Virus record (IMG/VR): IMGVR_UViG_3300014039_000016
Coordinates: 72,829-136,828 of that record
Length of the DNA: 64,000 nt
DNA from: a virus
Strand: one strand, 5' to 3'
Part shown: in pieces, positions 8,101-47,299 of the stretch
Numbering within the stretch: the first letter of the stretch is position 1
Layout: the number at the start of each line of letters is the position of its first letter
Translations under genes and position numbers: made by a program
Notes under the pieces: model-generated
The model's database searches: none
What the model saw: the letters and a program-made list of their open reading frames with translations, nothing else
Told to the model about the DNA's origin: nothing

Positions 8101-8949
8101 TCACTTAGCATTTCTACTAAGGACGACTGTTTCCAAATTTTTATAAATTAAATATTTTCTTTCTAAATGAACTAATGGACAACTATCATATAATTTTTTC
8201 ATTATAAAGTATGGTTTTTGTATACCTCCACATCGAATGTAAAAAGTATTATTTTGAACATTGTTTTTTTGTTCTAATGGATTATCCAATTTTAATACTT
8301 CTTTTATCCATTCAAGAGTTTCTTTAGTTCCAACAAAACTTATACCAAATTCATTATTATTTCCTAAAAAAATAGAACCATCTCCATCAAAGTAACCTAA
8401 AATATAAGGTAGAAAAAATTCTTTTTCTATTTTTGGTGGCTCTAAAATTAAACTTTTTCTTGGAACAATTCCTTTATTTATTAAATCAGAAACCATTTCA
8501 TTACTATTAAAAATAATTTTACTCATAGGAGTGTTATTTGAAAAGCCTTCATTTTGAATATGGTCAACAATTTTTACATCACTATTCATAAATTCTTTAA
8601 GCTTTTCTAAATGTTTTTTATCTTTTCTGCTAATATTTACACCACAAAAATTTCCTGCATTGCAATCTGTTCTTCTTTGATACACATATCCATCTGCAGC
8701 AATAAACCCTAGCCAATAAGCCTTTTCTTCGGTATCAATATTTTGAAATTTTCGATAATCAGCTTTATATTTATGATTATCGTTTCTATAAGTTATTTGA
8801 TTTTCTTTTAACACTCTTGAAATTACATTTTTTGAAACTTGATATTTGGCTCCAATATTAACCATACTTTGTTTTTGATTTATATATAAATTAATAATGT
8901 TCTTCTGTTGTTCATCTGTAAAATTAATTTTTCTCATAAATACCTCCAA
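8101..8949 (-). CDS. LAGLIDADG homing endonuclease (double-motif), intron-encoded
   Basis: YWLGFIAADGYV and ILGYFDGDGSI motifs with an N-terminal HTH. Confidence 0.85.
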   Translation of the reverse strand: MEVFMRKINFTDEQQKNIINLYINQKQSMVNIGAKYQVSKNVISRVLKENQITYRNDNHKYKADYRKFQNIDTEEKAYWLGFIAADGYVYQRRTDCNAGNFCGVNISRKDKKHLEKLKEFMNSDVKIVDHIQNEGFSNNTPMSKIIFNSNEMVSDLINKGIVPRKSLILEPPKIEKEFFLPYILGYFDGDGSIFLGNNNEFGISFVGTKETLEWIKEVLKLDNPLEQKNNVQNNTFYIRCGGIQKPYFIMKKLYDSCPLVHLERKYLIYKNLETVVLSRNAK

Positions 8950-14797: not shown

Positions 14798-15754
14798 TTA
14801 TTTATTTCCTTTCAAGATATTATAACCATAATTAACGCTATCATATAAACTTATATAGTATCTCTCTTTTTCATTTAATTCTGCTCTATCACATTTTTCT
14901 AGTAATTCCCAAGAGAAAGATTGTAAGCCATATTCTTGCATTGCTTTATATAATTTATTACCTGCGGGAGTATCTATTCCTAAACTGCATTTTGCATGCT
15001 CTGACCATCTGGAAGCAATATCCGCTGCTTGACCTATGTAACATTCTCCTGTGATAATATTGGTTATTTTATAAATACCTGTAACAGTAGAAGTACCAAG
15101 TATATTCGCGGCAAGTGCCTTTAACGGTTTTTGAAACCATGTTTGCCAAATCAACATACTTAAGACTCTTGGCTTATTTAAAGTCTTTTTTATATTTTCT
15201 AACTTTTGGATATCTGCAATATCAGCATCACTTATTTTTAAACAATAGAAAGATTGCTGTTCTTTAATTTTCTTTTCTCTAATTTGAGCTTCTATTGCGG
15301 CAGTCCTAGTTGCCTTTATTTTATCTAATTCTTTTTGAATTTCGGAAGTTTCTGCAAGTAATTTTTCTTGCGCGATTGCGTAAGCTTCTCTAAGACTGTC
15401 TTCTAATTCACTATATTCTTCTTCTGTGTTCTTATATGCTGCATCTAAAATATCGCAATATGATTCAAATGCTTCTTGAGACCTTTGTTTACTATTAGAA
15501 ATAGTTTCGTCTATTTGGCGTAAATTCTCTGTATAAATATTAATTTGCTCTTTTAAATTCTTAATATCGTTTTTTGTATTTAATTGTTCGTAATTTAACT
15601 TATCTTTTTCTAATTTAAGGTTACTTATTTGATATTCTAGTTTGCTTTTTTCATCTTTAGCTTTTGTATTATCTTTGATTTTTACAGTTAATACAAACCA
15701 TAATGCAACCACTAAAACAAAACAAAATATACCTAATCCAATTGTAATACCCAT
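14798..15754 (-). CDS. membrane-anchored coiled-coil protein with a C-terminal GIY-YIG nuclease domain
   Basis: N-terminal transmembrane helix GITIGLGIFCFVLVVALWFVL, about 200 aa of heptad-rich sequence, and a C-terminal GIYKITN...YIGQ...R...E...YG...N module. Confidence 0.6.
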   Translation of the reverse strand: MGITIGLGIFCFVLVVALWFVLTVKIKDNTKAKDEKSKLEYQISNLKLEKDKLNYEQLNTKNDIKNLKEQINIYTENLRQIDETISNSKQRSQEAFESYCDILDAAYKNTEEEYSELEDSLREAYAIAQEKLLAETSEIQKELDKIKATRTAAIEAQIREKKIKEQQSFYCLKISDADIADIQKLENIKKTLNKPRVLSMLIWQTWFQKPLKALAANILGTSTVTGIYKITNIITGECYIGQAADIASRWSEHAKCSLGIDTPAGNKLYKAMQEYGLQSFSWELLEKCDRAELNEKERYYISLYDSVNYGYNILKGNK

Positions 15755-23845: not shown

Positions 23846-24406
23846 TTATTCTCCTTTTACTTCTTTATATTTTAATTGAATATCTTCAATAATGGTATCA
23901 AGAGAAACTGGAGTATTGTTATGACTATCCATTCCAACATGATACATTGTAGGAATATTATTATAAAAATTCTCTTTCTGATGAGTATGACCATACAAAT
24001 TAATCACCTGTCTCTTCAGCGGAAGGTCGTTATCTTCATTTGCAACTATTGTTGGATAATGGCTTAAATAAAAATTATAACCTCGCAATTTTATTGTAGT
24101 TGCAAACCCATCAATAAGAACATTCGGACATTCAGCATAAAGCCTCTGTCTTGTAGCAGTATCGTGATTTCCAAAGAATAAATGAATTTCTCCCTTTAAT
24201 TGCTTTAAACACTTAATGCCTACATTATTATCTCCCAACATAACATCTCCAAGATGATAAACGACATCATCTGGCTGAACAACAGAATTCCAATTTTTAA
24301 TAATTGCGGCATTCATTTCTTCTATTGTACCAAAACCGCGTTCTTTAAAAATAAATTCTTTATTATGTCCAAAGTGAGAATCACTCGTGAAATATATTTT
24401 TCCCAT
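23846..24406 (-). CDS. calcineurin-like metallophosphoesterase (candidate 2',3'-phosphatase partner of the adjacent kinase)
   Basis: SDSHFGH...GDVMLGD...GNHD motifs. Starts 4 nt after the upstream kinase ORF ends. Confidence 0.7.
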   Translation of the reverse strand: MGKIYFTSDSHFGHNKEFIFKERGFGTIEEMNAAIIKNWNSVVQPDDVVYHLGDVMLGDNNVGIKCLKQLKGEIHLFFGNHDTATRQRLYAECPNVLIDGFATTIKLRGYNFYLSHYPTIVANEDNDLPLKRQVINLYGHTHQKENFYNNIPTMYHVGMDSHNNTPVSLDTIIEDIQLKYKEVKGE

Positions 24407-24409
24407 ATA

Positions 24410-25210
24410 TTACCTCCTTATCTTTCTTCTATGTATTTCATATTTATCTTTTAATTCTATGTTAGTAATCTCTCCGCAATCTGTTGTTATTGTAGAAATA
24501 GGATAAATATTATATATATCTGTATAAGGGTAGTTATCATGTACGGGGTCTGAAAATGTAGACCTCATTCTAGTAATAACTTCTTCAGGCACATAAGCTC
24601 TTGTTCCTTTTCTTAAACTATTCCCATAAAGTGCAACTTCTTCACTGACACTTACAAAAAGTGGAACTACATTAACATCTTTTAAGAAGTCTTTTCCAAT
24701 AGAGTTAATTAACTTCATTCTTGAACCTTTATTAAGATGAGTCGCATCTGCAAAACAATAATTGTTAAAAGCTATCTGATATTTAATCTGATTAACGAAT
24801 AATTGAAAAACTTCTTTTTCTTTTGAGAAATACTCTTCATCTTCTGAAACTATACTAAAACGAATTAAATCTCTACTAGCAACATGTTTTTCATAGTTAA
24901 TCTTATTAAGTTTGCAGAACATAGATAAGAAACTTGACTTTCTTGAACCTGGACATCCGCACATTAAGAACAAATATTTTTCATTAGGCTTTATCTCTAT
25001 ATCGCCGATAATTTCACCATCTTTATCTCCTTTTATAAAATATGGATATCCTTTTTCTTCATTACACTCATTTGAAAATAATGAAAATGTATAAATACCT
25101 GGCTTATAATAGTGACCATCTCCACGATAACAGCTATTATATTTAGGACAATATTCACTTCCACATCTTGTTATATCATTATCAAAATAAGAAATTGCAT
25201 TATTATTCAT
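24410..25210 (-). CDS. P-loop kinase (polynucleotide-kinase-like)
   Basis: Walker A MCGCPGSRKSSF. Confidence 0.5.
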   Translation of the reverse strand: MNNNAISYFDNDITRCGSEYCPKYNSCYRGDGHYYKPGIYTFSLFSNECNEEKGYPYFIKGDKDGEIIGDIEIKPNEKYLFLMCGCPGSRKSSFLSMFCKLNKINYEKHVASRDLIRFSIVSEDEEYFSKEKEVFQLFVNQIKYQIAFNNYCFADATHLNKGSRMKLINSIGKDFLKDVNVVPLFVSVSEEVALYGNSLRKGTRAYVPEEVITRMRSTFSDPVHDNYPYTDIYNIYPISTITTDCGEITNIELKDKYEIHRRKIRR

Positions 25211-25606: not shown

Positions 25607-26029
25607 TTATAAATTTTCTGCAATTTTTGCAATTTTACTTCTATAAATATTTTTAAGAGTAACTTCACTATAAAAATTTTGTCCTCTAAATACTTTAGAA
25701 ACTCTGCGGAGACCATTATGCTCACCCGCATACATATCTAAATCAACTTGGGCATTATCATCTCCATCAAGAATTACTTGACAATCATCACCAACTCTTT
25801 GAAGAGCAAGTTTCATTAAGTCTGAATCCATATTTTGTGCTTCTGTGATATAAATAATAGAATTAGAACCTGAAGTATCATATCCTCTAATATCAGCTAA
25901 AGGTAAAAGAATAAGCTGTTCATGCAATATCATATCATTTACAGTATCCTCTCCAAGTTTTGCCTTTAGAAAGTTTCCGATTTGGCTATCTAAAAGCTTC
26001 TCCGTCCTAGTTCCAGGGTAAACAAATAA
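25607..26029 (-). CDS. PhoH-like ATPase, exon 2 (C-terminal part)
   Basis: YPGTRTEKL (the LPGDLKEK equivalent), ITEAQN (the LDEAQN equivalent) and VILDGDDNAQVDL (the VVTGDxTQIDL equivalent). The start boundary near 26029 follows a G on the intron side. Inferred. Confidence 0.6.
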   Translation of the reverse strand, partial: LFVYPGTRTEKLLDSQIGNFLKAKLGEDTVNDMILHEQLILLPLADIRGYDTSGSNSIIYITEAQNMDSDLMKLALQRVGDDCQVILDGDDNAQVDLDMYAGEHNGLRRVSKVFRGQNFYSEVTLKNIYRSKIAKIAENL

Positions 26030-27340
26030 CTTTATAATTTTCATTATAAACCTGACTATATCTTATTTTAAACTATTTTTTAAAGAACAATATTTATTAT
26101 ATTTTCTTTGTAAATGTCTTGGACAATTTTCATATAAAATATTTAAAATTTTTAAAACTTGTAATCGACCTCTCCATTGAGTGTGCCAAGCAGATGTAAA
26201 AAAATTTTTATTTGTTTTTTCATTATCTGCTAAAAGATTGATTAAGGTTTGGAAATCTTGAACCTCTGTTTCATGATACGCAGTATAGCTTAAAGTAACA
26301 TCAGTACTAAAATCTTTACTGTAGCTCAATCCTCCATCCCCATCGAATAGACCTAATGCATAAGCACCCCAATATTTTTTAGGAATCTTTTGATATGGAA
26401 TATGGTCTATCATATAAGTTTTATTAGGAATAATATTATATTTTGCTAAATCATTATAGATTTGTTCATCAGTAAATTCTACAGAGCAACAAGTACTATT
26501 TGGTCGAATATCATAAATAATTTTTCCGTCTAACGCTAAATCTTCTTGAAATTTTTCTAAAATTTCTTTATCTCTTTCTTGTAATTGTAACCTAATTCTA
26601 CCTGTAGTTCTATAATGGTCAACGCTTCCATCTGTGAATAAAAAACCTAGCCAATAAGCTTTTTCTGGTGAATCAATGACTGAAAAGTAATCGCTTTTAA
26701 TTCTACGATTAATTCGATTAGTATTTTTAATTTGTAAGCCAAGTTCTTTCAGGCGGTGCTTAGTTGTTTCTTCATCTAAGTTACAATAATTAGCAACCTC
26801 TTTCAAGAAAGCACCTTCATCAATCATTTTTTTAACTTCCATAATTTGCTCATTAGTTAATTGTTTTTTCTTTCTACCTCCTCTAATAGGAATTTGATTT
26901 TCTTCAAGCAACTTTGTAATTTGCCTTCTATTAAAAGAGGGATAATCTCTTAATAATTGAGCTATTGATTTACCTTGTTGGTATTCTTGTATAATATTTT
27001 TTGTTTCCATAAAGAAACCTCCTTGTAATATTTTTACTATTCATATAAATATTAAAAATAAAAGAGGTAACTTTTCCTGTTTTGTCCAAAATTTTTCAGT
27101 TTAAAATCCATGCACTTCGAGATATTAAAATCCCTACTCTACTAACTTCCATATAAAAAATATGTGTTTTCGATAGTCGATGAACCTTCCTCTATTCGAG
27201 GCTCGGCTGCTGATTGTCCAATCTTTCTAATTTTTAAACATTCACACTTAGTCGTATTTCATACTTATGTTGTAGTTTAGAAAGCTCTAAGGAGGTTCCA
27301 GCAGTTCACATGGTTTTACTTGAGCCTTACCCTATTTTTA
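26030..27340 (-). mobile_element. group I intron (putative) in the PhoH-like gene, carrying a LAGLIDADG homing-endonuclease ORF
   Basis: PhoH is split between its Walker A region and its LPGD...DEAQN region. Segment 27170-27300 is near-identical to 7960-8095 of the helicase intron. Boundaries are approximate. Confidence 0.55.
26063..27010 (-). CDS. LAGLIDADG homing endonuclease (double-motif), intron-encoded
   Basis: YWLGFLFTDGSV and ALGLFDGDGGL motifs. Confidence 0.85.
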   Translation of the reverse strand: METKNIIQEYQQGKSIAQLLRDYPSFNRRQITKLLEENQIPIRGGRKKKQLTNEQIMEVKKMIDEGAFLKEVANYCNLDEETTKHRLKELGLQIKNTNRINRRIKSDYFSVIDSPEKAYWLGFLFTDGSVDHYRTTGRIRLQLQERDKEILEKFQEDLALDGKIIYDIRPNSTCCSVEFTDEQIYNDLAKYNIIPNKTYMIDHIPYQKIPKKYWGAYALGLFDGDGGLSYSKDFSTDVTLSYTAYHETEVQDFQTLINLLADNEKTNKNFFTSAWHTQWRGRLQVLKILNILYENCPRHLQRKYNKYCSLKNSLK

Positions 27341-28208
27341 ACCCAAGCTTAGCCGCGCCTCTAGCTGCGACTGTATTACAAAAAATAATGATTTTTTCTT
27401 TTTTGCCAGTTTCTAATTGATTCATCATATAAGCGAAAGCAAGGTAAGATTTTCCACTTCCCGCAGGACCTCTTAAGACAATCATCTGGTCATGAACTAA
27501 AGAGTCTAATGCAAGTAGCTGATATGCGTCATTATTGTAAGGACTTATCTTACCAAAGAATTTAGAGTCAATCTTAGGATATATAACTTTTTTATAACCT
27601 TCTTCTGTCCATTTATATTTATCAACAATACAGCTATTATTAACTACAATCAAATATTCATTAGTTAATAGACCATATTTATTATTTTTAGAATTAACTT
27701 CACAAGAATAGAAATTTGCTAATTCTTCATCATCTAAGTTTATAATTTTATAGCCAGTATAATCATCTTCTTCAACATCTGGACTGACTGTACTTAAACC
27801 TGCGGCTACCGCAAGCATTTTGCATGCAACATCTCTTGTTATAAATAAAGTTTCATCATTTTCTTTTTGTAAACTAAGAGCTGCATTAATAATATCACTA
27901 TCATTATTTGTGGCATTTGCTCCAGTTTTAATAACTTTATATTGGCTACTTTTGTTATCTAATAAATGAAGTAATTTTCTAGCTTTATATTTAATTTCAT
28001 TATCTTTTGATGCAGAGGTTTTTATATTTTCTAATTCCACGAGTGTAACATCCGCGATATAGAAAAAATCTTCAAAAGCTTTTTCTTGTAGTTCTAATAA
28101 AGCACAAGTATCATAAAATTTATTCATCTTCGTCCTCCTCATATTCTTCCAAATCTTGAGAAGCTTGGAACCCAATAGCAACGCCATTTCCTCCACAATC
28201 TTCTTCAA
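27340..28208 (-). CDS. PhoH-like ATPase, exon 1 (PIN-like N-terminal region plus Walker A)
   Basis: VLRGPAGSGKSYLAFAYMMNQL matches the PhoH P-loop. As drawn in the track, the ORF ends at 27327 inside the intron. Confidence 0.6.
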
Positions 28209-38570: not shown

Positions 38571-39119
38571 TTAATCAAATAAATTAGTTGGTGCATCAGA
38601 CAGCCCATTAAAATCTATTCTTTCAAAGTGTTGTCTATCATATCCAGTAATACCTAAAAATAATCTAGCTGGAAAACTCTTAACATATTTATTATAATCT
38701 GAAACAGCTTCATTATAAGTCTTTCTGTGCGCGGAAATTAAATTCTCTGTAATAGAAAGTTCATTCATTAATTCACGGTAATTATCAGAACTCTTTAATT
38801 CTGGATAAGCCTCTGCAACAATAGAAATAGTCTTAGTAACCTCTGCGGCAGCCGCATCAGAATCACTTCCTCTTGCCGCAATAACAGTCATCAGTGTATT
38901 GTACTCATGCTCATCATATGCTTTCACACAATCTACTAAGTTAGGAATTAAATCTGCTCTACGCTTTTCCTGAACAGTAACATTAGACTTCGCATTTTCA
39001 ACTGTCTCTTCTAATCTGATTGCCTTATTCTGTGGGGTCTGTGCAACAAAGATTAACAAAATGAAAACAGCAATAACACTAACTGTAATAATAATTGGTA
39101 ATTTATTAAAATTCTTCAT
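38571..39119 (-). CDS. LemA family protein
   Basis: N-terminal TM plus a QEKRRADLIPNLV motif. Confidence 0.8.
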   Translation of the reverse strand: MKNFNKLPIIITVSVIAVFILLIFVAQTPQNKAIRLEETVENAKSNVTVQEKRRADLIPNLVDCVKAYDEHEYNTLMTVIAARGSDSDAAAAEVTKTISIVAEAYPELKSSDNYRELMNELSITENLISAHRKTYNEAVSDYNKYVKSFPARLFLGITGYDRQHFERIDFNGLSDAPTNLFD

Positions 39120-39291: not shown

Positions 39292-40131
39292 TTACTCTCC
39301 TACATATATTAACTTGTCAATATATTCTCTACCTTCACCTTTAAACATTGGAATTTCCGTATCAATAGTCCAGCCTTTAATTCTGTCTCCATCTGAAATA
39401 GATTTAGGGTTCTGCATATCTTCACGAATACAGCAACTTCCGCATTTCTGATGTGTTGGAAAATCATTCCAATTAACACCTTTCTGCGTCATAAGCATAT
39501 CTTGGATATCACTACATGACTTATCCTGTAATTCTTTCTGAGAAAAATAAGCCTGACCTACCATCTGAATAGAATTACGAGAGGCATCCAGTTGCCGCCA
39601 ATAAATAAGATTAGTTACTTCTTCTTTTGGAATATTGAAACAACGAGCATCGAACATAGCGCCTTTTAGCATAGAGTGGACATGATTCATATGGATTATC
39701 TCTAAATTATCATCAACTACATTTCCTTCCTCATCTGAATTAGAAAGTATTTCCTTTTCAACATTCTTAGCAAAAGCCTTATTGAATGCCATCGTAGCCA
39801 TACTCGCGGCAATGCTACAAAGCTTTTCTACTCGATAGTCAAACCAGGCATCTGTTGTTAATGTCTGATAATCAACCAAGATTAAAGTAATTTCATCTGA
39901 TTGTGTATATCCTAACACACAACCCTGGATATTCTGACACAAATATTGAGTTGTCTGTTGCATTGTTTTAATTAGCACCTCGTCAAAAGGTCGCTTAAAA
40001 CCTCGCGTAAAGGTGTGAAATGCCTTGCCATCAATTCTAATAGCAACAGGCATCCTCTTTATTAACTTAGTATCTGGAACAGCTTCATAGAATGTTTTCA
40101 TGCGAGTTCCAAGTTCATCTCTAATACTCAT
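39292..40131 (-). CDS. Thg1-like protein (tRNA-His guanylyltransferase family, 3'-5' nucleotidyltransferase)
   Basis: VAIRIDGKAFHTF (the VRLDGRNFHRF equivalent) and YTQSDEITLIL (the catalytic QSDEYS equivalent). Confidence 0.85.
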   Translation of the reverse strand: MSIRDELGTRMKTFYEAVPDTKLIKRMPVAIRIDGKAFHTFTRGFKRPFDEVLIKTMQQTTQYLCQNIQGCVLGYTQSDEITLILVDYQTLTTDAWFDYRVEKLCSIAASMATMAFNKAFAKNVEKEILSNSDEEGNVVDDNLEIIHMNHVHSMLKGAMFDARCFNIPKEEVTNLIYWRQLDASRNSIQMVGQAYFSQKELQDKSCSDIQDMLMTQKGVNWNDFPTHQKCGSCCIREDMQNPKSISDGDRIKGWTIDTEIPMFKGEGREYIDKLIYVGE

Positions 40132-40144
40132 ACTTACTCCTTTA

Positions 40145-40570
40145 CTAAGAAATCATTGAACCAACAACTTTATTAGCAATCTTCATATCTGCTTTACCTT
40201 TTAAAGCTGCCATAATCTTACCTCTGTTACTCTTTACTAACTCCAATCCTGTTTTCTGAATAAAATTCTTAATATCTTCTTCATTATCCATAAGGCTTGG
40301 CGCGAATTCATTGATAATATCCAACTTAACCTTATACTCTTCAAGAGTCTCTACTCTATCAGCAGGACAAGTATCTATCATCTCCTGTACAGTTTTCTTC
40401 TCTTTAAGAATAACTGCATTAATCTGGTCTTCTGTAACATTATCTTTACACTTATTATCAATTCCAAATTTCTGAACTGCCTGAACAAGACTTGAAATAG
40501 TATTTTTTCTTTCCTTATCCTTGTTTTTCATCGCAGCAATCATTTCTTTTTGCAAAAAATCTAAAGTCAT
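40145..40570 (-). CDS. GatB/YqeY-domain protein
   Basis: LQKEMIAAMKNKDKERKNTISSLVQAV matches the YqeY family. Confidence 0.7.
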   Translation of the reverse strand: MTLDFLQKEMIAAMKNKDKERKNTISSLVQAVQKFGIDNKCKDNVTEDQINAVILKEKKTVQEMIDTCPADRVETLEEYKVKLDIINEFAPSLMDNEEDIKNFIQKTGLELVKSNRGKIMAALKGKADMKIANKVVGSMIS

Positions 40571-40591
40571 ATTTTTTAATCTCCTTTATTA

Positions 40592-40840
40592 TTAATATAA
40601 AAAATGAAAAGAATCTTTATCTTTTACAATAGTCCCATGCAGGGTCTGTTGAATTTCTCTTTTTTTATTCTTTTCTTCTCTTTTTAAATATTTTAAAATA
40701 GCTTTTCTGCATCCTCTTTTAGTTAAATATCCTTTTGCGACTATGTAATAGTCTTGAATCATATTAGAGTATAAATACCCATTATATCCATGTGGAACAC
40801 AAGGTTCTATTTTATACTGATATTCTTTCCTTTCTTTCAT
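40592..40840 (-). CDS. small hypothetical protein
   Basis: ORF with no confident motif. Confidence 0.3.
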   Translation of the reverse strand: MKERKEYQYKIEPCVPHGYNGYLYSNMIQDYYIVAKGYLTKRGCRKAILKYLKREEKNKKREIQQTLHGTIVKDKDSFHFLY

Positions 40841-40841
40841 A

Positions 40842-41675
40842 TTACTTCTTTTCCTTATTAAAACTTAATTTCTCCTGAAAGGTAATCTCTTTTACATCTT
40901 CAAAACCAAGTTCTCCGTCTTTAATAAAGTACTGATTGATTAGAGTGTTAATAATTCTCGCACCAATAGAGTTATTCTTAAAATTATCTTTAAGATACTT
41001 CTTAATTGTATCTACACAAACCTCTCTGTCTACATCTGGAAAGAGACGCAGATAATTCTCTAACAATTCTGAACTTTCAAGAATTTCATATAAATCCTTT
41101 AAGACTAGCTTATCTGTATTATATACTAAGCCTACTCTGCCTAAGAACTCTGTCTTTACACCAAAACTTCTTAACTTATCAAGAGTAATCTCTTCTTCAT
41201 TGTTAAAAGCACCTGCAAAAACGAATAAGCATTTACTAATATCAATATTAACATAATGTCCATAATTACCATACACCGCAGTAGCAGGAGATTCAAGAAC
41301 CTTTAAGAACTCATTCTGAACTCCTAATGTAACTTCATTAGCAATAGAAGAATTAGAATTATCTGAAATAAACAGTTTATCAAATTCATCTACAAAAACA
41401 ATAGTTGGCTTACCCTTTAATTCCGCAATAGGTGACAATGCCTTACTTAAAGAATTACCTGATGTACCTTCTTTAGTAAGCTGTGCGGCATTGATACTAA
41501 TAAAAGCAAGCTCCTTCTCTCTAGCTAAAGTCTCAATAGTAAAAGATTTTCCGCTCCCACTGTCTCCTGTCAAAATAAAATGTGGTCTAATTGCTCCGCC
41601 ACTTGCGGAAAAGATATCAAATACTCTTCCTAATTCTCTAACAATCCTTTCCTGTCCAATAATTTTTGTTTTCAT
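40842..41675 (-). CDS. AAA+ family ATPase
   Basis: Walker A LTGDSGSGKSF and Walker B VFVDEFDKL. Confidence 0.7.
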   Translation of the reverse strand: MKTKIIGQERIVRELGRVFDIFSASGGAIRPHFILTGDSGSGKSFTIETLAREKELAFISINAAQLTKEGTSGNSLSKALSPIAELKGKPTIVFVDEFDKLFISDNSNSSIANEVTLGVQNEFLKVLESPATAVYGNYGHYVNIDISKCLFVFAGAFNNEEEITLDKLRSFGVKTEFLGRVGLVYNTDKLVLKDLYEILESSELLENYLRLFPDVDREVCVDTIKKYLKDNFKNNSIGARIINTLINQYFIKDGELGFEDVKEITFQEKLSFNKEKK

Positions 41676-41720
41676 AAATAGTAAACCTCATTTCTTTTAT
41701 TTTCTATATATATTATATCA

Positions 41721-41754
41721 AAAAATATAAAAAAAATAAAGGGCGAGTTTAATA
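41721..41754 (-). terminator. rho-independent terminator after the surface-protein gene
   Basis: GGGCGAG/CTCGCCC stem followed by TTTATTTTTTTT. Confidence 0.65.
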
Positions 41755-41767
41755 CTCGCCCTAATAA

Positions 41768-43099
41768 TTATTTCTTCTTTTTAGTTAAACATATTGCACA
41801 TAAAATCCAAAAAATACAGCATAAAGATACTACAACACATATAGTCCACCAGCCTAAAAGGCTTTCATCTCCAGTTTGTACGCTAACCGTCGAGATATCT
41901 GCGGCAATTTCTGGTGTCTTACTCGGCTTTATATCTTTAGACTCCGCAATTTCTTCATCTGCCTCTAACTCTGGTGCTTTTGTTTCTTTTGTCATTTCAG
42001 TAGAGCTAGTTGTAGTTTTCTGTACAGTAGTTGTTTCTAATTCTGTGGTTGTCTCTTCATTCTTAAAACTTTCCGTTTCATTTTGCTTAATTGTTTCTGT
42101 TGTTTGTTCAGAAGAACTCTCTGTTGTATTTTGTTCAGAAGATGATTCAACTGTTGTAGTTTCAGAATTTGATTTTGTAAAACCTCTAAAAGCTATTTTA
42201 TGAATTTCGCTACTATGCGTTAAAGTATTACAAATTACTGAGCCAATAAGGTTTCCTGCATTTATATTTACAGTAGCCATTGGCGCAAGAATAGTTCCTG
42301 AGAATATACAATTTTGATTAATATTTCCGCAATAAGCACCAAAATTCCAAAGAATATTGCCACTCCATGACTCCCAGCCTTCATTTTGTATTTTACTTTC
42401 AATATTTATATTTTCTTCATTATTAGTAATAACATTAATAACTACAATTTTATCTTTAGCTATTGATTTAATGTATTCTCCCTGGTCAATATCATGTGAT
42501 AAGTCTTCTGCATTAATATTAAAGACTATAATGTTATTATTCACAGGTGTAAATTTACCATTCCAATAATTATTTTTCATAATTTTTGAAGAGTTTACTT
42601 GACTATATAAATCATTCGCATAAACTGTTAAATCAGCAAAAAGCTTTTCAAAATCTAAAAATTCTCCATCGCTTTTTTGTACGACAGATAAAAGATTATT
42701 TGTAGTTCCAAAAACTTGATTATCTACGAACCACTGATTTCCACGCTTTTCTATATTATAAGTATCACTAGTAACTAATCTATTGGTTACTCCATTCTGA
42801 AAGACATATAATCCATTAATTAAATTTTGAATATAAGATGTATTGTATTCACCTGGAACTCGTGAATTTTCAATACTACAATAACTCCATAAGTTATGGA
42901 TTAAGACATTACCTTCTACATGCCCAATACCTTGTTTATATTCTTTCGTAACAACAGCATAATCAAGCGTAAAATCTTCTCCTGATGCTTTGGTTGTGTG
43001 TGGCAGTAGTATAAAAGTTGCTGTAATTATTAACATAATTGCTAATAAAAATGAGATTATTTTCTTGTTATTTTTCATTTCCTTCCCTCCATAAAACAA
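41768..43099 (-). CDS. cell-surface protein with signal peptide, Ser/Thr/Glu-rich linker and C-terminal membrane anchor
   Basis: N-terminal signal/TM, a TTVESSSEQNTTESSSEQTTE linker and a C-terminal hydrophobic segment followed by a KKKK tail. Confidence 0.4.
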   Translation of the reverse strand: MFYGGKEMKNNKKIISFLLAIMLIITATFILLPHTTKASGEDFTLDYAVVTKEYKQGIGHVEGNVLIHNLWSYCSIENSRVPGEYNTSYIQNLINGLYVFQNGVTNRLVTSDTYNIEKRGNQWFVDNQVFGTTNNLLSVVQKSDGEFLDFEKLFADLTVYANDLYSQVNSSKIMKNNYWNGKFTPVNNNIIVFNINAEDLSHDIDQGEYIKSIAKDKIVVINVITNNEENINIESKIQNEGWESWSGNILWNFGAYCGNINQNCIFSGTILAPMATVNINAGNLIGSVICNTLTHSSEIHKIAFRGFTKSNSETTTVESSSEQNTTESSSEQTTETIKQNETESFKNEETTTELETTTVQKTTTSSTEMTKETKAPELEADEEIAESKDIKPSKTPEIAADISTVSVQTGDESLLGWWTICVVVSLCCIFWILCAICLTKKKK

Positions 43100-43124
43100 A
43101 ATAAGGGCAGAAAAATCTGCCCTT
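43091..43124 (-). terminator. rho-independent terminator after the CAP-domain gene
   Basis: AAGGGCAG/CTGCCCTT stem followed by ATTTTGTTTT. Confidence 0.6.
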
Positions 43125-43128
43125 ATCC

Positions 43129-44052
43129 TTAGTTCATTAATAAGATATAATAAAAATATCCTTCTGCGTCTTGCGCGATTCCTACTCCAATATAATTGTA
43201 ATTATTACTTAACATTAAAGCATTATGTGCTTTAGAATTTTTCCAGCCTTCAACCGCTTCCGCACAGCTAGAAAAATATCTTGCATAGTTTTCTCCAAAA
43301 TTACCAGATAGATTGTATAACTCAAAAATGCTACTTGCCGATTCAAAATTAGGTCTATAATGATGCATTGCGCCATCTGAAGTATATCCAATCATATTCC
43401 AATCTGAATAAGCTGATTCGGTAGCTCTATGTTCTGCGGCAAGTGATAATACATTATTATATTCTAAAGGATATAAGCTATTTGAAATACGATAATCATT
43501 AATTATTGATACAAGTTCTTGTATTTGATTATCATATTTCACAATATTATTCGCAGATATTTGTTTTAAGTCATTATCGGTTAGGATTTTTGGTTGTGGA
43601 ATTTCATTTGTATTACTATAATTAACTCCATTACAAATAATATTAGTTATAGTAGGTTGCGGAATTTCTGCTTGAGTCTCCTCCATCTCGGTAGAAGCTT
43701 CTATAACCTGAGTTTCCGCGTCAACATTTTTAGAATAAGTTTCTGTTTCTTCAATTTCTGTCTCTGTTTCTTCTTCTATTGTTGATTCTAATATAATATT
43801 TTCAACAGTTTCTTCTTCTATACTTCTATTTGTTTCGGTCTCGAAAATCATATTTCGTGCAGCCGCGATTTGTCCATTCTGCTGTATATCTACTATTGTG
43901 TTAGCACTTCTACCTTCCTTGAAAGCACAAATACCAGCGATTAAGAAGACTCCCGCAGTTAAAGAAACTGTTGAAATTTTTAATATCTTTCTATTCATTA
44001 ACAGTACCTCCTCTTTTGAAGAAGGACATACAAATGAAAAGTGAAGATGCAA
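43129..44052 (-). CDS. CAP/SCP (PR-1/YkwD-like) domain protein with N-terminal TM
   Basis: C-terminal ...GWKNSKAHNALMLSNNYNYIGVGIA matches the CAP domain. Confidence 0.55.
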   Translation of the reverse strand: MHLHFSFVCPSSKEEVLLMNRKILKISTVSLTAGVFLIAGICAFKEGRSANTIVDIQQNGQIAAARNMIFETETNRSIEEETVENIILESTIEEETETEIEETETYSKNVDAETQVIEASTEMEETQAEIPQPTITNIICNGVNYSNTNEIPQPKILTDNDLKQISANNIVKYDNQIQELVSIINDYRISNSLYPLEYNNVLSLAAEHRATESAYSDWNMIGYTSDGAMHHYRPNFESASSIFELYNLSGNFGENYARYFSSCAEAVEGWKNSKAHNALMLSNNYNYIGVGIAQDAEGYFYYILLMN

Positions 44053-44119
44053 CTGGCTAGCTTTTCAGCCCCTATAGCTTTGCGTCCTTACCTTTCGATA
44101 AGTTTGCCCATAAAAATAT

Positions 44120-44153
44120 TATATATAATAAAAGCCATAGTTATCTATGGCTT
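44120..44153 (-). terminator. rho-independent terminator after the vWA gene
   Basis: AAGCCATAG/CTATGGCTT stem followed by a T-rich run. Confidence 0.55.
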
Positions 44154-44161
44154 AATTATTA

Positions 44162-45661
44162 TTAAATTGTAACACATGAATATCTGTCACTGTTAAGCTT
44201 AGCTAACATAAGGTCATATCCATCTTTTCCAGAAAGGATAGTTTCTACCATATTCATATTAAACCCAGAGACATAAGAGAATCTTCCGCCAAGAGCTGGA
44301 ATATTATTCTGTCTAGCATCTAAGTTCCAAAAGATGACCTTTGGAAGCTCATAGCCTTCAGCCGCCCACTTCTGAGCAATCTTCTCTAACTCTGTTGATA
44401 TATCGCCTTCTGTTACTGCACTACGATAACCATATTTAGCATCTCTGTTAGACTTGATATTGACGCAATAGTTAAATTCCATATCTGAAAAGATATAAAG
44501 TCTCTCTGGCATATCTGCTGGGGATACATTATCTTTCTTAGCTGTATTTAATAACATATCAAAAACAGCTTCGATGTTAGTGCTATTGCCCCAATCTGAA
44601 CGACCCGCTACTCTCTCGAACTTATCAACAATATCTGTTCCCTCAAACTTTATCAACTTAGGGGAATTAGAAAAAGTGATAAAATGATTAGCGAAAGGTC
44701 CATGACCTCTTTCTGCAATATATGCGCCCATTGATACAGCCGCTGCGATAGGTGTGCCATACATAGAACCTGAAGTATCTACGATACAAAGACCATTTTC
44801 TTCATGTCCATTGTAGTAATCCTTAAGATTAGTCCAGTATTTCTCAAGCATAGCAATATCTGTCTCAGTCTTGTCACTATAGTCAAAACACTTCTTAGCA
44901 ATATCTACTGGATTAAGGACATCTGCATTTACTGTTGTATTAGTGTCTTTAGCAAAAGACTCATACTTTTTAGCTATAATATCTCTGCGGGCGAAAGCAT
45001 TCTTATAGATAAGACCAGCCTTAGATGGTAACTTATCGAACTCAATCTCATCCCATCTATTTTCAGACATTAATCTCTCTACAATATTAATCTTCGCGCG
45101 AAGGGCGGATAAAAGCTTACGATATTCCTTATGAGTTAAACCAAGATAAACTCTTAACTTGTTACCAAGCTTAGCAGTCTCTCTTGAGGAGGCATTCTCT
45201 GAAGGCATCCACTTAGCAAGTAATGAAGGTGTCTTAGACTGAACATCAAGTGTAAGCTGCTCCTTAATCTTTGAAAATGCGAGATATTCTGCTGGTGTAC
45301 CAACTGTTGAATAGATAAGGTCGTCCCATCTACCAAAATTAGATACATTATCTAAATTACGCTTTGCAACTCCAGGATGATTCTCACAAAGCCAGCGGAA
45401 ACAAACTCTAAAGAAGCGTCTTTCTCCCATGCCTCCTCTGCAATCTCTGAGGTAGAATAAACACTTCATAGCTAGTAACTCATCTTCTTCTATCGCGTTC
45501 TTAAAAAGAAGAATGCAGTCCTTATCAGAACGATTTCTGAAAGCTCCGCCTAAAGCGAACATATCCAGCACAGCAGACTTAGTTGTGTTATGAGTGACAC
45601 CACCATTTTCTGTATTTGTAAAGTTATTGTCATCTACTAATCCGTTTAAAAATGAATTCAT
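44162..45661 (-). CDS. vWA-domain protein (DUF2828-like), possibly Ro60-related
   Basis: MIDAS-like CIVDTSGSMYG motif. Confidence 0.55.
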   Translation of the reverse strand: MNSFLNGLVDDNNFTNTENGGVTHNTTKSAVLDMFALGGAFRNRSDKDCILLFKNAIEEDELLAMKCLFYLRDCRGGMGERRFFRVCFRWLCENHPGVAKRNLDNVSNFGRWDDLIYSTVGTPAEYLAFSKIKEQLTLDVQSKTPSLLAKWMPSENASSRETAKLGNKLRVYLGLTHKEYRKLLSALRAKINIVERLMSENRWDEIEFDKLPSKAGLIYKNAFARRDIIAKKYESFAKDTNTTVNADVLNPVDIAKKCFDYSDKTETDIAMLEKYWTNLKDYYNGHEENGLCIVDTSGSMYGTPIAAAVSMGAYIAERGHGPFANHFITFSNSPKLIKFEGTDIVDKFERVAGRSDWGNSTNIEAVFDMLLNTAKKDNVSPADMPERLYIFSDMEFNYCVNIKSNRDAKYGYRSAVTEGDISTELEKIAQKWAAEGYELPKVIFWNLDARQNNIPALGGRFSYVSGFNMNMVETILSGKDGYDLMLAKLNSDRYSCVTI

Positions 45662-45717
45662 ACTCTTTTCTCTCCTTATTTATCTTATATTTTTAAGAAA
45701 GGCTATTATCATAGCCG

Positions 45718-45799
45718 AAAGACGCGAGTGGGAATCGAACCCACCACCCGAAGGTTTCAACGGAGTTGCAGTCCGCGTCAATACCACTCTGACACCGCG
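45718..45799 (-). tRNA. tRNA-Cys(GCA)-like with an atypical 15-nt variable arm
   Basis: Acceptor stem GACGCGG/TCGCGTC, T-arm GTGGG-TTCGATT-CCCAC and anticodon loop CTGCAAC. No encoded CCA. Confidence 0.6.
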
Positions 45800-45802
45800 T
45801 CA

Positions 45803-46147
45803 TTATACCACATATATATATGTTAATGTAAATTTAAACTTACTAAATGGAATATATAGTGCTTCAATATCAAAAACATCATTATTTTTATCTTGTACTT
45901 CTGTTTCAAAAACACCATTTTTATTATTTATATAGATACTTCCTTTTGTTCCATTTGCCTTTTTATAAAAAAATGGATATCCTAATCCCTTAGGTTCTAC
46001 TTCTATACCAAATTTTACCATATTTGTTACTGGAATTTCTACATATTCTACTGTTTCAGCAGCTCTATTAGGAAAATTAATATTTTCACTATAACTAGGA
46101 GTTTGTGAAACAATATTAGCATCTGTTATTTGCATAACTTTAAACAT
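45803..46147 (-). CDS. hypothetical protein
   Basis: ORF between two tRNA-like genes. Confidence 0.35.
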   Translation of the reverse strand: MFKVMQITDANIVSQTPSYSENINFPNRAAETVEYVEIPVTNMVKFGIEVEPKGLGYPFFYKKANGTKGSIYINNKNGVFETEVQDKNNDVFDIEALYIPFSKFKFTLTYIYVV

Positions 46148-46176
46148 TAATTACCACCTTTTCTTATTTGCTTTAA

Positions 46177-46260
46177 CTACGGCAGTGGGACTCGAACCCA
46201 CACGCCACAATGGCACAGGAATCAAAATCCTGCATGTCTATCCATTTTCATCATGCCGCA
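46177..46260 (-). tRNA. tRNA-Gln(UUG)-like with a long 14-nt variable arm
   Basis: Acceptor TGCGGCA/TGCCGTA, anticodon arm CAGGA-TTTTGAT-TCCTG, variable hairpin GCCATTGTGGC and T-arm GTGGG-TTCGAGT-CCCAC. Confidence 0.55.
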
Positions 46261-47028
46261 TTATATTTTATTCCATTCTTCTTCAGAATAAGAATTAATA
46301 TCTTTTTTTCGACTTGGAAGATTTTCTGATATACACCATTTAGTGATAGCTTTATCAGAAACACCATATTGTTCTCCTATCTTTGTAAATGGAGTAGTTC
46401 TAATAAGTTTTTTCAATTCTTCTCTTGATGGTCTTTTACATACTCTCTTTAATTTTGAAGAACATTCAAAACATAATCCAGAATTAGAATTTTTAGATAT
46501 TTCTTTATTACATTCTTTACAATAATACTTTATTTTTTTAGTATTATCAGAAATAATCCCCTTAGAAGAGATATGATTTCTATTTAATTTATTCTTTCCA
46601 TTTGTAGTATCTAACTGCTGATTGCAATTAGGACAAACCCAACGAAGATTTTCTAATCTATCATCATGGTTACAGCCATTTATATGGTCAAGAATTAAAG
46701 TTAATTCTTTTCCTTGCCATATAGGTTCTTGTCCGCAAATAGAACAAACATATGGAGTATATTCTCCTTTAACATACCATCTTCTTAAAGTTGCTTGACT
46801 AGCTGTTGAATCTTTAATAAAGATATTTCCCTCATTTCTCTCTATTCCTTTTTTAATAGCAAAATGAGAAATATCTATATTATATTTTTCTAATCTTGAT
46901 TTTACTGTGTTATTATTACTACCACTATGAGTAGCATATCCAAGTTTATCAATTACTTCTTTCATAGAAGAACTTGACTCTACTATTTGTTGAAGTTCTT
47001 CTTTTGAAAAATTATCAATTATTGCCAT
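46261..47028 (-). CDS. HNH homing endonuclease with C-terminal HTH module (paralogue family)
   Basis: CSICGQEPIWQGKELTLILDHINGCNHDDRLENLRWVCPNCN. The C-terminal 55 aa are shared with the ORFs at 58041 and 59549. Confidence 0.8.
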   Translation of the reverse strand: MAIIDNFSKEELQQIVESSSSMKEVIDKLGYATHSGSNNNTVKSRLEKYNIDISHFAIKKGIERNEGNIFIKDSTASQATLRRWYVKGEYTPYVCSICGQEPIWQGKELTLILDHINGCNHDDRLENLRWVCPNCNQQLDTTNGKNKLNRNHISSKGIISDNTKKIKYYCKECNKEISKNSNSGLCFECSSKLKRVCKRPSREELKKLIRTTPFTKIGEQYGVSDKAITKWCISENLPSRKKDINSYSEEEWNKI

Positions 47029-47151
47029 TTTTATTCTCCTTCATCTTTTGATATAATATATCAAAAATCCGAAGTACGAATTTTAGAACTTCGACCAAAT
47101 TTAAAAAAATTTTTTCTTTGTGCCTTACCGCTTGGCGATACCCCAAAGAAA

Positions 47152-47223
47152 TGTAAACCGAGAGACTCGAACTCTCATCTTCTGAACCACAATCAGAGGT
47201 CCTAGCCCTTGAACGAGGCTTAC
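47152..47223 (-). tRNA. tRNA-His(GUG). No encoded G-1 and discriminator A73.
   Basis: Acceptor GTAAGCC/GGTTTAC, anticodon loop TTGTGGT and T-arm GAGAG-TTCGAGT-CTCTC. The base 5' of G1 is U. Confidence 0.8.
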
Positions 47224-47225
47224 AA

Positions 47226-47299
47226 TTGGGCGTGAGGGATTCGGACCCTCGGTCTCTCCGTCCCAAGCGGAGCGCGATACCAAACTTCGCTAACGCCCA
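47226..47299 (-). tRNA. tRNA-Pro(UGG)
   Basis: Acceptor TGGGCGT/ACGCCCA, anticodon loop CTTGGGA and T-arm GAGGG-TCCGAAT-CCCTC. Sits 2 nt from tRNA-His. Confidence 0.75.

Follow-up and report, generated by a model that had tools for sequence, protein, structure and literature searches.

The locus

We analysed a 64,000-nucleotide stretch (hereafter the window) of the IMG/VR virus record IMGVR_UViG_3300014039_000016 (positions 72,829 to 136,828), in which all genes lie on the minus strand. Two of these genes are the subject of this work: one coding for a Thg1-like protein (TLP), and a tRNA-His gene that encodes neither G at position -1 (G-1) nor C at position 73 (C73), the two identity marks of the bacterial histidyl-tRNA synthetase (HisRS). 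These two genes and the features adjoining the tRNA are as follows.

39292-40131, minus strand: Thg1-like protein of bacterial type, 279 aa (Pfam, PDB and PHROG matches)
47152-47223, minus strand, read from 47223 to 47152: tRNA-His(GUG) (ARAGORN; Rfam RF00005, 50.2 bits, E 4e-9)
47224-47225, minus strand: two-nucleotide spacer 'UU' separating G1 of tRNA-His from A73 of tRNA-Pro; position -1 of tRNA-His is U47224, which could form a pair with A73 of this tRNA
47226-47299, minus strand: tRNA-Pro(UGG) with U1:A72 and A73 (Rfam, 63.3 bits)

A bacterial-type Thg1-like protein

A reading made earlier from the sequence alone (the sequence-only reading) had assigned the ORF at 39292-40131 to the Thg1 family, and the profile searches bear this out. 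The Pfam Thg1 domain (PF04446) matched with an E-value of 1.4e-30 and 106.4 bits (cut-off 29.2), and PHROG 4717, 'tRNA-His guanylyltransferase', matched at 3e-87; Thg1C scored 19.7 bits, under its own cut-off. Both catalytic carboxylate motifs are present, R-x-D in strand 1 (IRIDGKAFH) and S-D-E (QSDEIT), and their columns are invariant in our alignment A1. QSDEIT had been quoted correctly before, but the first motif reads IRIDGKAFHTF and not VRIDGKAFHTF.

The closest solved structure is that of the Bacillus thuringiensis enzyme BtTLP (4KGK), matched at E 1e-59 in two stretches that span the whole protein; the two proteins are 46% identical in alignment A1. The BtTLP sequence used as a query was reconstructed from this PDB match and is 7 residues short. 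The archaeal MaTLP (5AXK) was matched at 3.8e-13 and eukaryotic Thg1 chains at 2.5e-7 to 4e-10. The eukaryotic HINNLYN motif is absent from the phage protein, which has DASRNSIQM in its place (compare DASKNSISM in BtTLP); in this region the phage segment WRQLDASRNSIQM aligns with WRYVDTHINNLYN of chain 5XOX. Because the match to BtTLP (1e-59) is far better than any to eukaryotic Thg1 (4e-10 at best), and because DASRNSIQM replaces HINNLYN, we assign the enzyme to the TLPs and not to eukaryotic Thg1. By its sequence it is thus a bacterial-type TLP, an enzyme of the class by which RNA is lengthened at its 5' end, in the 3'-5' direction, on an opposite-strand template. The eukaryote-type arrangement proposed in the sequence-only reading therefore holds for the tRNA, which lacks G-1 and C73, but not for the enzyme.

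BtTLP (PDB 4KGK/4KGM; Rao et al. 2011, Hyde et al. 2013) shares with the phage TLP the catalytic columns and the TLP-type motif, and by analogy we would expect the same chemistry, that is activation of the 5' phosphate by ATP or GTP followed by templated 3'-5' addition. It differs in lacking an acidic insertion of about 30 aa that lies between the two conserved halves of the phage protein (residues ~123-157). The eukaryotic Thg1 enzymes (yeast, human, Candida; 3OTB, 3WBZ, 5XOX) belong to the same Pfam family and fold class, and on paper their substrate is alike, as it too is a tRNA-His that carries A73 and does not encode G-1. However, they add a non-templated G opposite A73 and read the anticodon, whereas TLPs are restricted to Watson-Crick addition (PMC3061083, PMC12632743, PMC3245924).

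Besides these matches, we observed a gene 97% identical to BtTLP at 9998-10735 of L137, an IMG/VR contig that derives from an isolate genome and is 163,815 bp long, where its neighbours code for a phage DNA polymerase, an NAD-dependent ligase, a group II intron reverse transcriptase and a GIY-YIG homing endonuclease. Because this gene sits among phage genes, BtTLP, the model 'bacterial' TLP, may itself be phage-borne.

The phage of the window is about 151 kb long, as judged from a 151-kb contig that carries an identical phage. It originates from the gut and its size is below the jumbo range. A megablast search of GenBank phages, for which 24 kb of window sequence served as the query, gave no match; there is no close cultured relative. 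TLP relatives with 49-67% identity were found on isolate-genome contigs of Roseburia, Blautia, Lachnospiraceae A4 and MD308, Eubacterium plexicaudatum and Clostridium sp., and the phage endolysin contains CW_7 repeats; because of these two observations, the host is probably a member of the Lachnospiraceae/Clostridia.

A conserved tRNA-His without G-1 and C73

Rfam and ARAGORN place a tRNA-His(GUG) where the sequence-only reading had located it, although the strand, which is minus, had been left unstated there. Read on this strand, the end of tRNA-Pro, the spacer, tRNA-His and its trailer run as ...CGCCCAA-UU-G1UAAGCC...GGUUUAC72-A73-UUUC. Position -1 is U (47224), the first pair is G1:C72, the discriminator is A73 (47152), and CCA is not encoded. 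The earlier description of the gene as U-1/A73 is therefore accurate: where a canonical bacterial tRNA-His encodes G-1 this gene has U, and where C73 would pair with G-1 it has A. On its own, the tRNA-His sequence folds into a perfect cloverleaf with a minimum free energy of -21.1 kcal/mol.

Identical copies of the gene occur in two independent assemblies (L092, L093), and diverged copies keep U-1 and A73, among them L005/L087, in which G5.U68 is replaced by A5-U68, and L082, which has a change in the D-loop. The compensatory nature of the G5.U68 to A5-U68 change in L005, together with this conservation, argues for use as a folded tRNA, while being silent on charging. The gene is thus a genuine, conserved phage tRNA that lacks both bacterial HisRS identity marks. 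Its D arm and anticodon arm are close to those of canonical G-1:C73 phage tRNA-His genes such as L085. A blastn search with the tRNA-His against GenBank phages returned spurious short matches only.

While a strict tRNA-His pattern found nothing in a scan of metagenomes, a looser pattern found 48 loci. Some of these form a second tRNA-His family, whose acceptor stem (GUGUUGU/ACAACAC) is unrelated to that of the window gene but whose ends are again U-1 and A73, followed by a UUUU trailer. Its members lie in dense tRNA arrays on human-gut contigs, some of them 160-230 kb long (L232, L235, L259, L262, L264, L275 and others), and one of them (L262) codes for a cREC homologue 74% identical to that of the window. 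In the window and in all 5 distinct second-family loci, precisely two nucleotides, UU or CU, lie between the discriminator of the upstream tRNA and G1. Among the unambiguous, non-redundant tRNA-His genes of IMG/VR and metagenomes that have the window's anticodon arm, we counted about 6 with G-1/C73, about 8 with U-1/A73, about 3 with U-1/C73-CCA and about 3 with G-1/A73. Non-canonical tRNA-His genes are therefore common in phage-like contigs. In another tRNA-His gene, at 8395-8470 of L083, an insertion and mismatches at positions 2-3 disrupt the 5' acceptor strand, although the gene otherwise resembles the canonical L085 type; it is either decaying or dependent on 5' editing.

A tRNA-His without G-1 and with A73 is also known from alpha-proteobacteria and, as an (8/4) tRNA-His, from their phages (Wang 2007; Yuan 2011; Mukai 2017), so that phage genes of this kind have already been reported (PMC5389517). 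The alpha-proteobacterial type, however, has G1-U72 and U20a and is served by a HisRS that co-evolved with it and recognises the anticodon (PMC3064791), whereas the window gene has G1:C72 and a 7/5 cloverleaf. With the Caulobacter HisRS, U72C carries a 91-fold cost (PMC3064791). We rejected assignment to this type because position 72 is C in the window and the likely host belongs to the Clostridia.

tRNA ends in the window

ARAGORN found 22 tRNA genes in the window, and 2 further ones lie just outside it on the identical 151-kb contig. For the 20 window tRNAs with Rfam-defined ends, U-1 is present in 16 (background T 0.31; binomial estimate ~1e-5), A73 in 14, and G-1 or C73 in none. CCA is encoded in one of the 20, and a UU or UUU trailer follows 13. 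Besides tRNA-His, 13 window tRNAs have a -1 and a 73 nucleotide that could pair. U-1 and A73 are thus the generic tRNA ends of this phage; because tRNA-His carries these phage-generic ends, it lacks both bacterial HisRS identity marks, and what is notable about it is the missing His-specific G-1:C73. Since U is the usual -1 leader base for bacterial RNase P, cleavage at +1 is to be expected. The trailers and the missing CCA fit Firmicute-style maturation by RNase Z followed by the CCA-adding enzyme.

These ends bear on one explanation that does without the TLP altogether, namely that the encoded U-1 is retained in the mature tRNA. This could come about through RNase Z cleavage after the upstream N73 followed by trimming, or through RNase P cleavage shifted by the U-1:A73 pair, and a 5'-phosphorylated U-1 would then pair with A73, giving HisRS the 8-bp end that it recognises. 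ARAGORN does draw the tRNA-His with an 8-bp stem, the 2-nt spacer is strictly kept in the window and the second family, and U-rich trailers without CCA would fit the RNase Z-type processing known from Bacillus subtilis. Yet the 13 other tRNAs with a pairable -1:73 are presumably cut at +1, U-1 is the standard leader base and nothing marks tRNA-His as special in this respect. Moreover, a 2-nt spacer would leave U-2 as well, and the A-1 or C-1 of the Tsarbombavirus genes described below could not pair with A73. We therefore consider retention of U-1 improbable.

Several other tRNA genes of the window have unusual features. tRNA-Phe(GAA) (57596-57669, minus strand) has a C1.C72 mismatch atop the acceptor stem together with U-1 and A73, and is identical in the independent assembly L227; replacement of its position 1 by a G templated on C72 would, by analogy, be exactly the reaction that BtTLP prefers. 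Two IMG/VR pattern scans for diverged relatives of this C1.C72 tRNA-Phe, considered as a candidate for 'editing' by the TLP, found none. tRNA-Gln(CUG) (57783-57856, minus strand) has the anticodon loop GGCUGGG, with G33 for the near-universal U, and A73 for the usual bacterial G73. Long variable arms, unusual in these isotypes, occur in the 84-nt tRNA-Gln(UUG) (46177-46260, minus strand) and in two tRNA-Cys(GCA) genes of about 82 nt (45720-45801 and 61287-61368, minus strand). The first tRNA-Cys (45720-45801) and tRNA-Tyr score below the Rfam gathering score.

Distribution of TLP and G-1-less tRNA-His among phages

If enzyme and tRNA formed a dedicated pair, they might be expected to travel together. 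At least 234 IMG/VR contigs carry close TLP relatives, and we inspected the best 80 of these loci, with 10 kb on each side, as well as 30 genome-derived ones. A tRNA-His lies within 10 kb of the TLP gene in only one of the best 80 IMG/VR loci (L005) and in none of the 30 genome-derived loci; among more distant TLP loci the count is 4/89. Within the fetched loci, a tRNA-His of the window's type near a TLP gene is confined to the window's own sub-lineage. The complete 88-kb genome of Staphylococcus phage PMBT8 has no tRNA genes at all, yet codes for a TLP 41.5% identical to that of the window.

Phages with a TLP differ in the kind of tRNA-His that they carry. Bacillus phage G has a canonical G-1:C73 tRNA-His, whereas Fusobacterium phage Fnu1 and its relatives encode G-1, A73 and CCA. 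In ten TLP-positive Tsarbombavirus genomes (BCP78, TsarBomba, PBC6, BC01, MarvelLand, 0524phi7-1, BCP12, McCartney, QCM8 and Emiliahah) the tRNA-His has A-1 or C-1, C1:G72 and A73. These phages of the Bacillus cereus group (e.g., BCP78, TsarBomba and Bc431v3) resemble that of the window in having a TLP (42-44% identical), about 20 tRNAs and a G-1-less tRNA-His with A73 adjacent to tRNA-Pro; they differ in C1:G72 and in A-1 or C-1, and their genomes are unrelated to the window at the DNA level.

G-1-less tRNA-His genes also occur where there is no TLP. Neither of the related Bacillus phages Tsamsa (L224) and Kirov (L225) is among the 46 Bacillus records that make up the full TLP-positive list; their tRNA-His, with C-1, C1:G72 and A73, is of the Tsarbombavirus type. 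The TLP-less T4-like E. coli phage AR1 (L220) has a tRNA-His with U-1, C73 and CCA, and all T4-like rows among the matches listed (H138-H161 of 433 near-full-length records) align to the E. coli tRNA-His only from G+1. The KVP40-like Vibrio phage nt-1 (L281), which is not among the phages established as TLP-less, has U-1, C73 and CCA as well, and the tRNA-His of a temperate Streptococcus phage is canonical. Overall, TLP and G-1-less tRNA-His occur independently of each other, without a clean association. The sequence-only reading had gone further in proposing a self-contained tRNA-His maturation module; both of its parts are real, but co-occurrence does not back a dedicated pairing between them.

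Since AR1, Tsamsa and Kirov keep G-1-less tRNA-His genes, such genes can persist without a TLP. This brings in a second explanation in which the TLP is irrelevant, namely that the tRNA-His works, or at least persists, without any -1 nucleotide, either because weak charging by HisRS through the anticodon and the tRNA body is offset by abundance, or because the tRNA serves as a decoy for tRNA-targeting defences. The near-canonical D and anticodon arms of the window gene agree with this, and in yeast, overexpression of tRNA-His together with HisRS allows survival in the absence of G-1 (cited in PMC3064791). On the other hand, loss of both G-1 and C73 should be strongly deleterious with a standard bacterial HisRS (PMC3064791), and the conservation of the gene, with its compensatory change in L005, argues for use as a folded tRNA. 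We regard this explanation as unlikely, though less so than retention of U-1.

Biochemistry of TLPs and the -1 nucleotide

What HisRS mainly recognises is an acceptor end of 8 bp whose -1 nucleotide bears the 5' phosphate (PMC3061083), and loss of G-1 costs more than 100-fold with the E. coli and yeast enzymes (PMC3064791). A dedicated module would overcome this cost as follows: RNase P cuts the tRNA-His at +1, the TLP adds the -1 nucleotide (G, or U templated by A73), HisRS then charges the product, and histidine decoding comes under phage control. The absence of both G-1 and C73 from the tRNA is in line with such a step. BtTLP does add G-1 or U-1 to an A73 tRNA-His, slowly, in vitro, and it rescues the growth of a yeast thg1-delta strain that has only A73 tRNA-His, with the -1 nucleotide restored (PMC3061083).

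The preferences of TLP-type enzymes nevertheless point elsewhere. Nucleotide addition by BtTLP is Watson-Crick templated, its kcat/KM for G-1 addition is ~50-fold lower opposite A73 than opposite C73, and U is incorporated ~40-fold more than G when UTP and GTP compete for an A73 tRNA-His (PMC3061083). Archaeal-type enzymes are said in a review to require C73 (PMC3245924). Whatever the tRNA type, BtTLP acts much better on substrates truncated at the 5' end (PMC3061083), and according to a 2025 preprint every studied TLP except DdiTLP2 repairs truncated tRNAs (PMC12632743). DdiTLP2 of Dictyostelium offers a precedent for a TLP as the physiological maturation enzyme of a mitochondrial tRNA-His (PMC12632743). 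It adds G-1 opposite C73 only (PMC12632743), so that its template C73 gives G-1, whereas the template in the window is A73 and the templated product would be U-1.

An RNA-repair gene set in the window

The window contains further genes with predicted functions in RNA repair, in addition to neighbours of the TLP and tRNA-His genes.

23846-24406, minus strand: phosphoesterase adjoining the kinase gene (Pfam Metallophos_2, 8e-9; PHROG 547, 9e-48)
24410-25210, minus strand: polynucleotide-kinase-like P-loop kinase (Pfam AAA_33, 3.9e-6; PHROG 505 polynucleotide kinase, 4.8e-11)
28453-29712, minus strand: RNA ligase (Pfam RNA_ligase, 1.5e-19, and PHA02142 OB domain; PHROG 968, 2e-57)
35717-36529, minus strand: RlaP-type (Pol-beta family) RNA-repair nucleotidyltransferase (Pfam RlaP, 2.7e-5, above cut-off; PHROG 388 nucleotidyltransferase)
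36522-37259, minus strand: metallophosphoesterase, overlapping the RlaP gene (Pfam Metallophos, 6.9e-14; PHROG 246)
40145-40570, minus strand: YqeY/GatB-tail-like protein (Pfam YqeY, 9.8e-16), directly upstream of the TLP gene in transcription
44162-45661, minus strand: DUF2828/DUF7788 protein (Pfam; PHROG 850 'RNA-binding protein', 4e-123)
46261-47028, minus strand: HNH/zinc-ribbon homing-endonuclease-like gene between tRNA-His and tRNA-Gln (weak HNH_3 and Zn-ribbon matches)
63167-63457, minus strand: cREC_REC, a cyclic-phosphate processing receiver, within the tRNA array (Pfam PF20274, 3.1e-21)

An RNA ligase, an end-healing kinase/phosphatase and repair nucleotidyltransferases thus occur together in one genome. 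Phage RNA-repair toolkits such as T4 Pnkp/Rnl comprise the same components (RNA ligase, kinase/phosphatase, RlaP, nucleotidyltransferases and Thg1; Iyer et al. 2021, PMC7824862), and in large tRNA-rich phages they have been read as a counter to tRNA-cleaving host defences (PMC7824862). The phage Thg1 was classed with the RNA-repair functions in that survey (PMC7824862), which covered jumbo phages, whereas the window phage is a gut phage of ~151 kb. In Aeromonas phage 4L372D the TLP gene lies 1.1 kb from a tRNA nucleotidyltransferase gene, and no tRNA-His was found within 20 kb of it.

The YqeY-domain gene does adjoin the TLP gene, as the sequence-only reading had it, but transcriptionally it lies upstream and not downstream. 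We rejected it as a conserved TLP partner, since it lies within 10 kb of the TLP gene in only 6/80 relatives and is adjacent only in near-identical genomes. The DUF2828 gene is likewise near the TLP gene in only 6 of the 80, and a PDB sequence search with its product gave nothing significant; a small ORF beside it is flanked by tRNA-Gln(UUG) and the first tRNA-Cys. The tRNA cluster Pro-His-Gln-Cys is kept in L005, L082 and L092-L094, and together with the DUF2828 gene it forms a variable island that is near the TLP gene in a handful of the 80 relatives. The HNH gene is polymorphic, being missing from the otherwise identical L093, where tRNA-His and tRNA-Gln are a few nt apart.

Other homing-endonuclease-like genes of the window are of the GIY-YIG (767-1444 and 14798-15754), LAGLIDADG (8101-8949), HNH (29955-30638 and 58041-58784) and PD-(D/E)XK (59549-60244) types, and L227 has an extra PD-(D/E)XK gene within its tRNA array. 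A PIN/PhoH gene seems to be split (25607-28208, minus strand) into a part with PIN and the PhoH N-terminal region (27327-28208) and a PhoH C-terminal part (25607-26044); a LAGLIDADG endonuclease ORF (26063-27010) between them suggests insertion of an intron or intein. Just downstream of the TLP region lie genes for an 839-aa protein with major-vault-protein shoulder and repeat domains and for SPFH/flotillin-like and LemA-family proteins (30723-35375 and 38571-39119, minus strand).

Interpretation

The TLP may be primarily a general polymerase for tRNA 5'-end repair within a phage RNA-repair kit, its use on tRNA-His being optional; judging from the gene content and the enzyme type, we hold this to be about an even call. 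During infection it would mend the acceptor stems of host or phage tRNAs whose 5' nucleotides have been lost or damaged, and its targets would include damage done by host tRNA-targeting defences. RNase P would cut the tRNA-His at +1, and the TLP could then act on it opportunistically, with U-1 templated by A73 preferred over G-1 if BtTLP is a guide. With U-1 added, the acceptor end would again comprise 8 bp and bear its 5' phosphate at -1. By this analogy, extension of tRNA-His is a possible secondary use of the TLP; it would be neither the raison d'etre of the TLP gene nor a requirement that the comparative data bear out.

Several points weigh against this repair role, and the first two of them fit a real dependency of the tRNA on the enzyme. 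U-1 and A73 are kept in two divergent tRNA-His families whose acceptor stems are unrelated, with the reservation that the second family is known from its tRNA loci. Ten TLP-positive Tsarbombavirus genomes combine A73 with the lack of G-1, and the TLP-positive Fusobacterium phages also have A73. The yeast rescue by BtTLP described above belongs here too. The absence of tRNA-His near TLP genes refers to 10-kb flanks and not to whole genomes, with the exception of the complete PMBT8. An in vivo repair role has never been shown for any bacterial or phage TLP (PMC3245924; PMC6471195).

Nonetheless, a module dedicated to tRNA-His seems to us rather doubtful, if the likeliest of the alternatives to repair. 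The enzyme is of the TLP type, and BtTLP favours C73 over A73 and U over G on an A73 template; TLP genes are kept in hundreds of relatives without a nearby tRNA-His and in the tRNA-less PMBT8; phage G has a TLP and yet a canonical tRNA-His; and Tsamsa, Kirov and AR1 have G-1-less tRNA-His genes without a TLP. We accordingly put forward only tentatively that in these gut phages, and perhaps in Tsarbombavirus, the A73 tRNA-His of the phage receives from the phage TLP a -1 nucleotide that is not encoded, either G or a U for which A73 is the template.

Implications

Phage genes for a 'tRNA-His guanylyltransferase' are widely annotated (164 phage records in GenBank, plus hundreds of IMG/VR contigs) and have already been read as tRNA modification or repair functions, while phages are absent from a 2019 review of Thg1 (PMC6471195). 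In the literature that we searched we found nothing linking a phage TLP with a G-1-less tRNA-His, and no discussion of how G-1-less phage tRNA-His become charged. Such tRNAs are spread over unrelated phage lineages (T4-like phages, Bacillus sipho- and myophages and these gut phages), whether a TLP is present or not, which raises the question of how a G-1-dependent HisRS charges them. Likewise, the in vivo role of bacterial-type TLPs is still unsettled more than a decade after their biochemistry was described (PMC3245924; PMC6471195).

Should the ordinary explanation be true, the gene would add to the 'tRNA-His guanylyltransferase' annotations that phage RNA-repair kits already contain. Dedicated addition of the -1 nucleotide, if true, would be the first case in a bacterial virus of post-transcriptional installation of tRNA-His identity and would provide the first physiological substrate of a bacterial-type TLP, with histidine decoding under phage control. 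A dependency of this kind between enzyme and tRNA, through TLP-dependent N-1 addition, is plausible but unproven; the conserved tRNA-His that lacks both bacterial marks, paired here with a TLP, nevertheless constitutes a concrete and testable candidate substrate.

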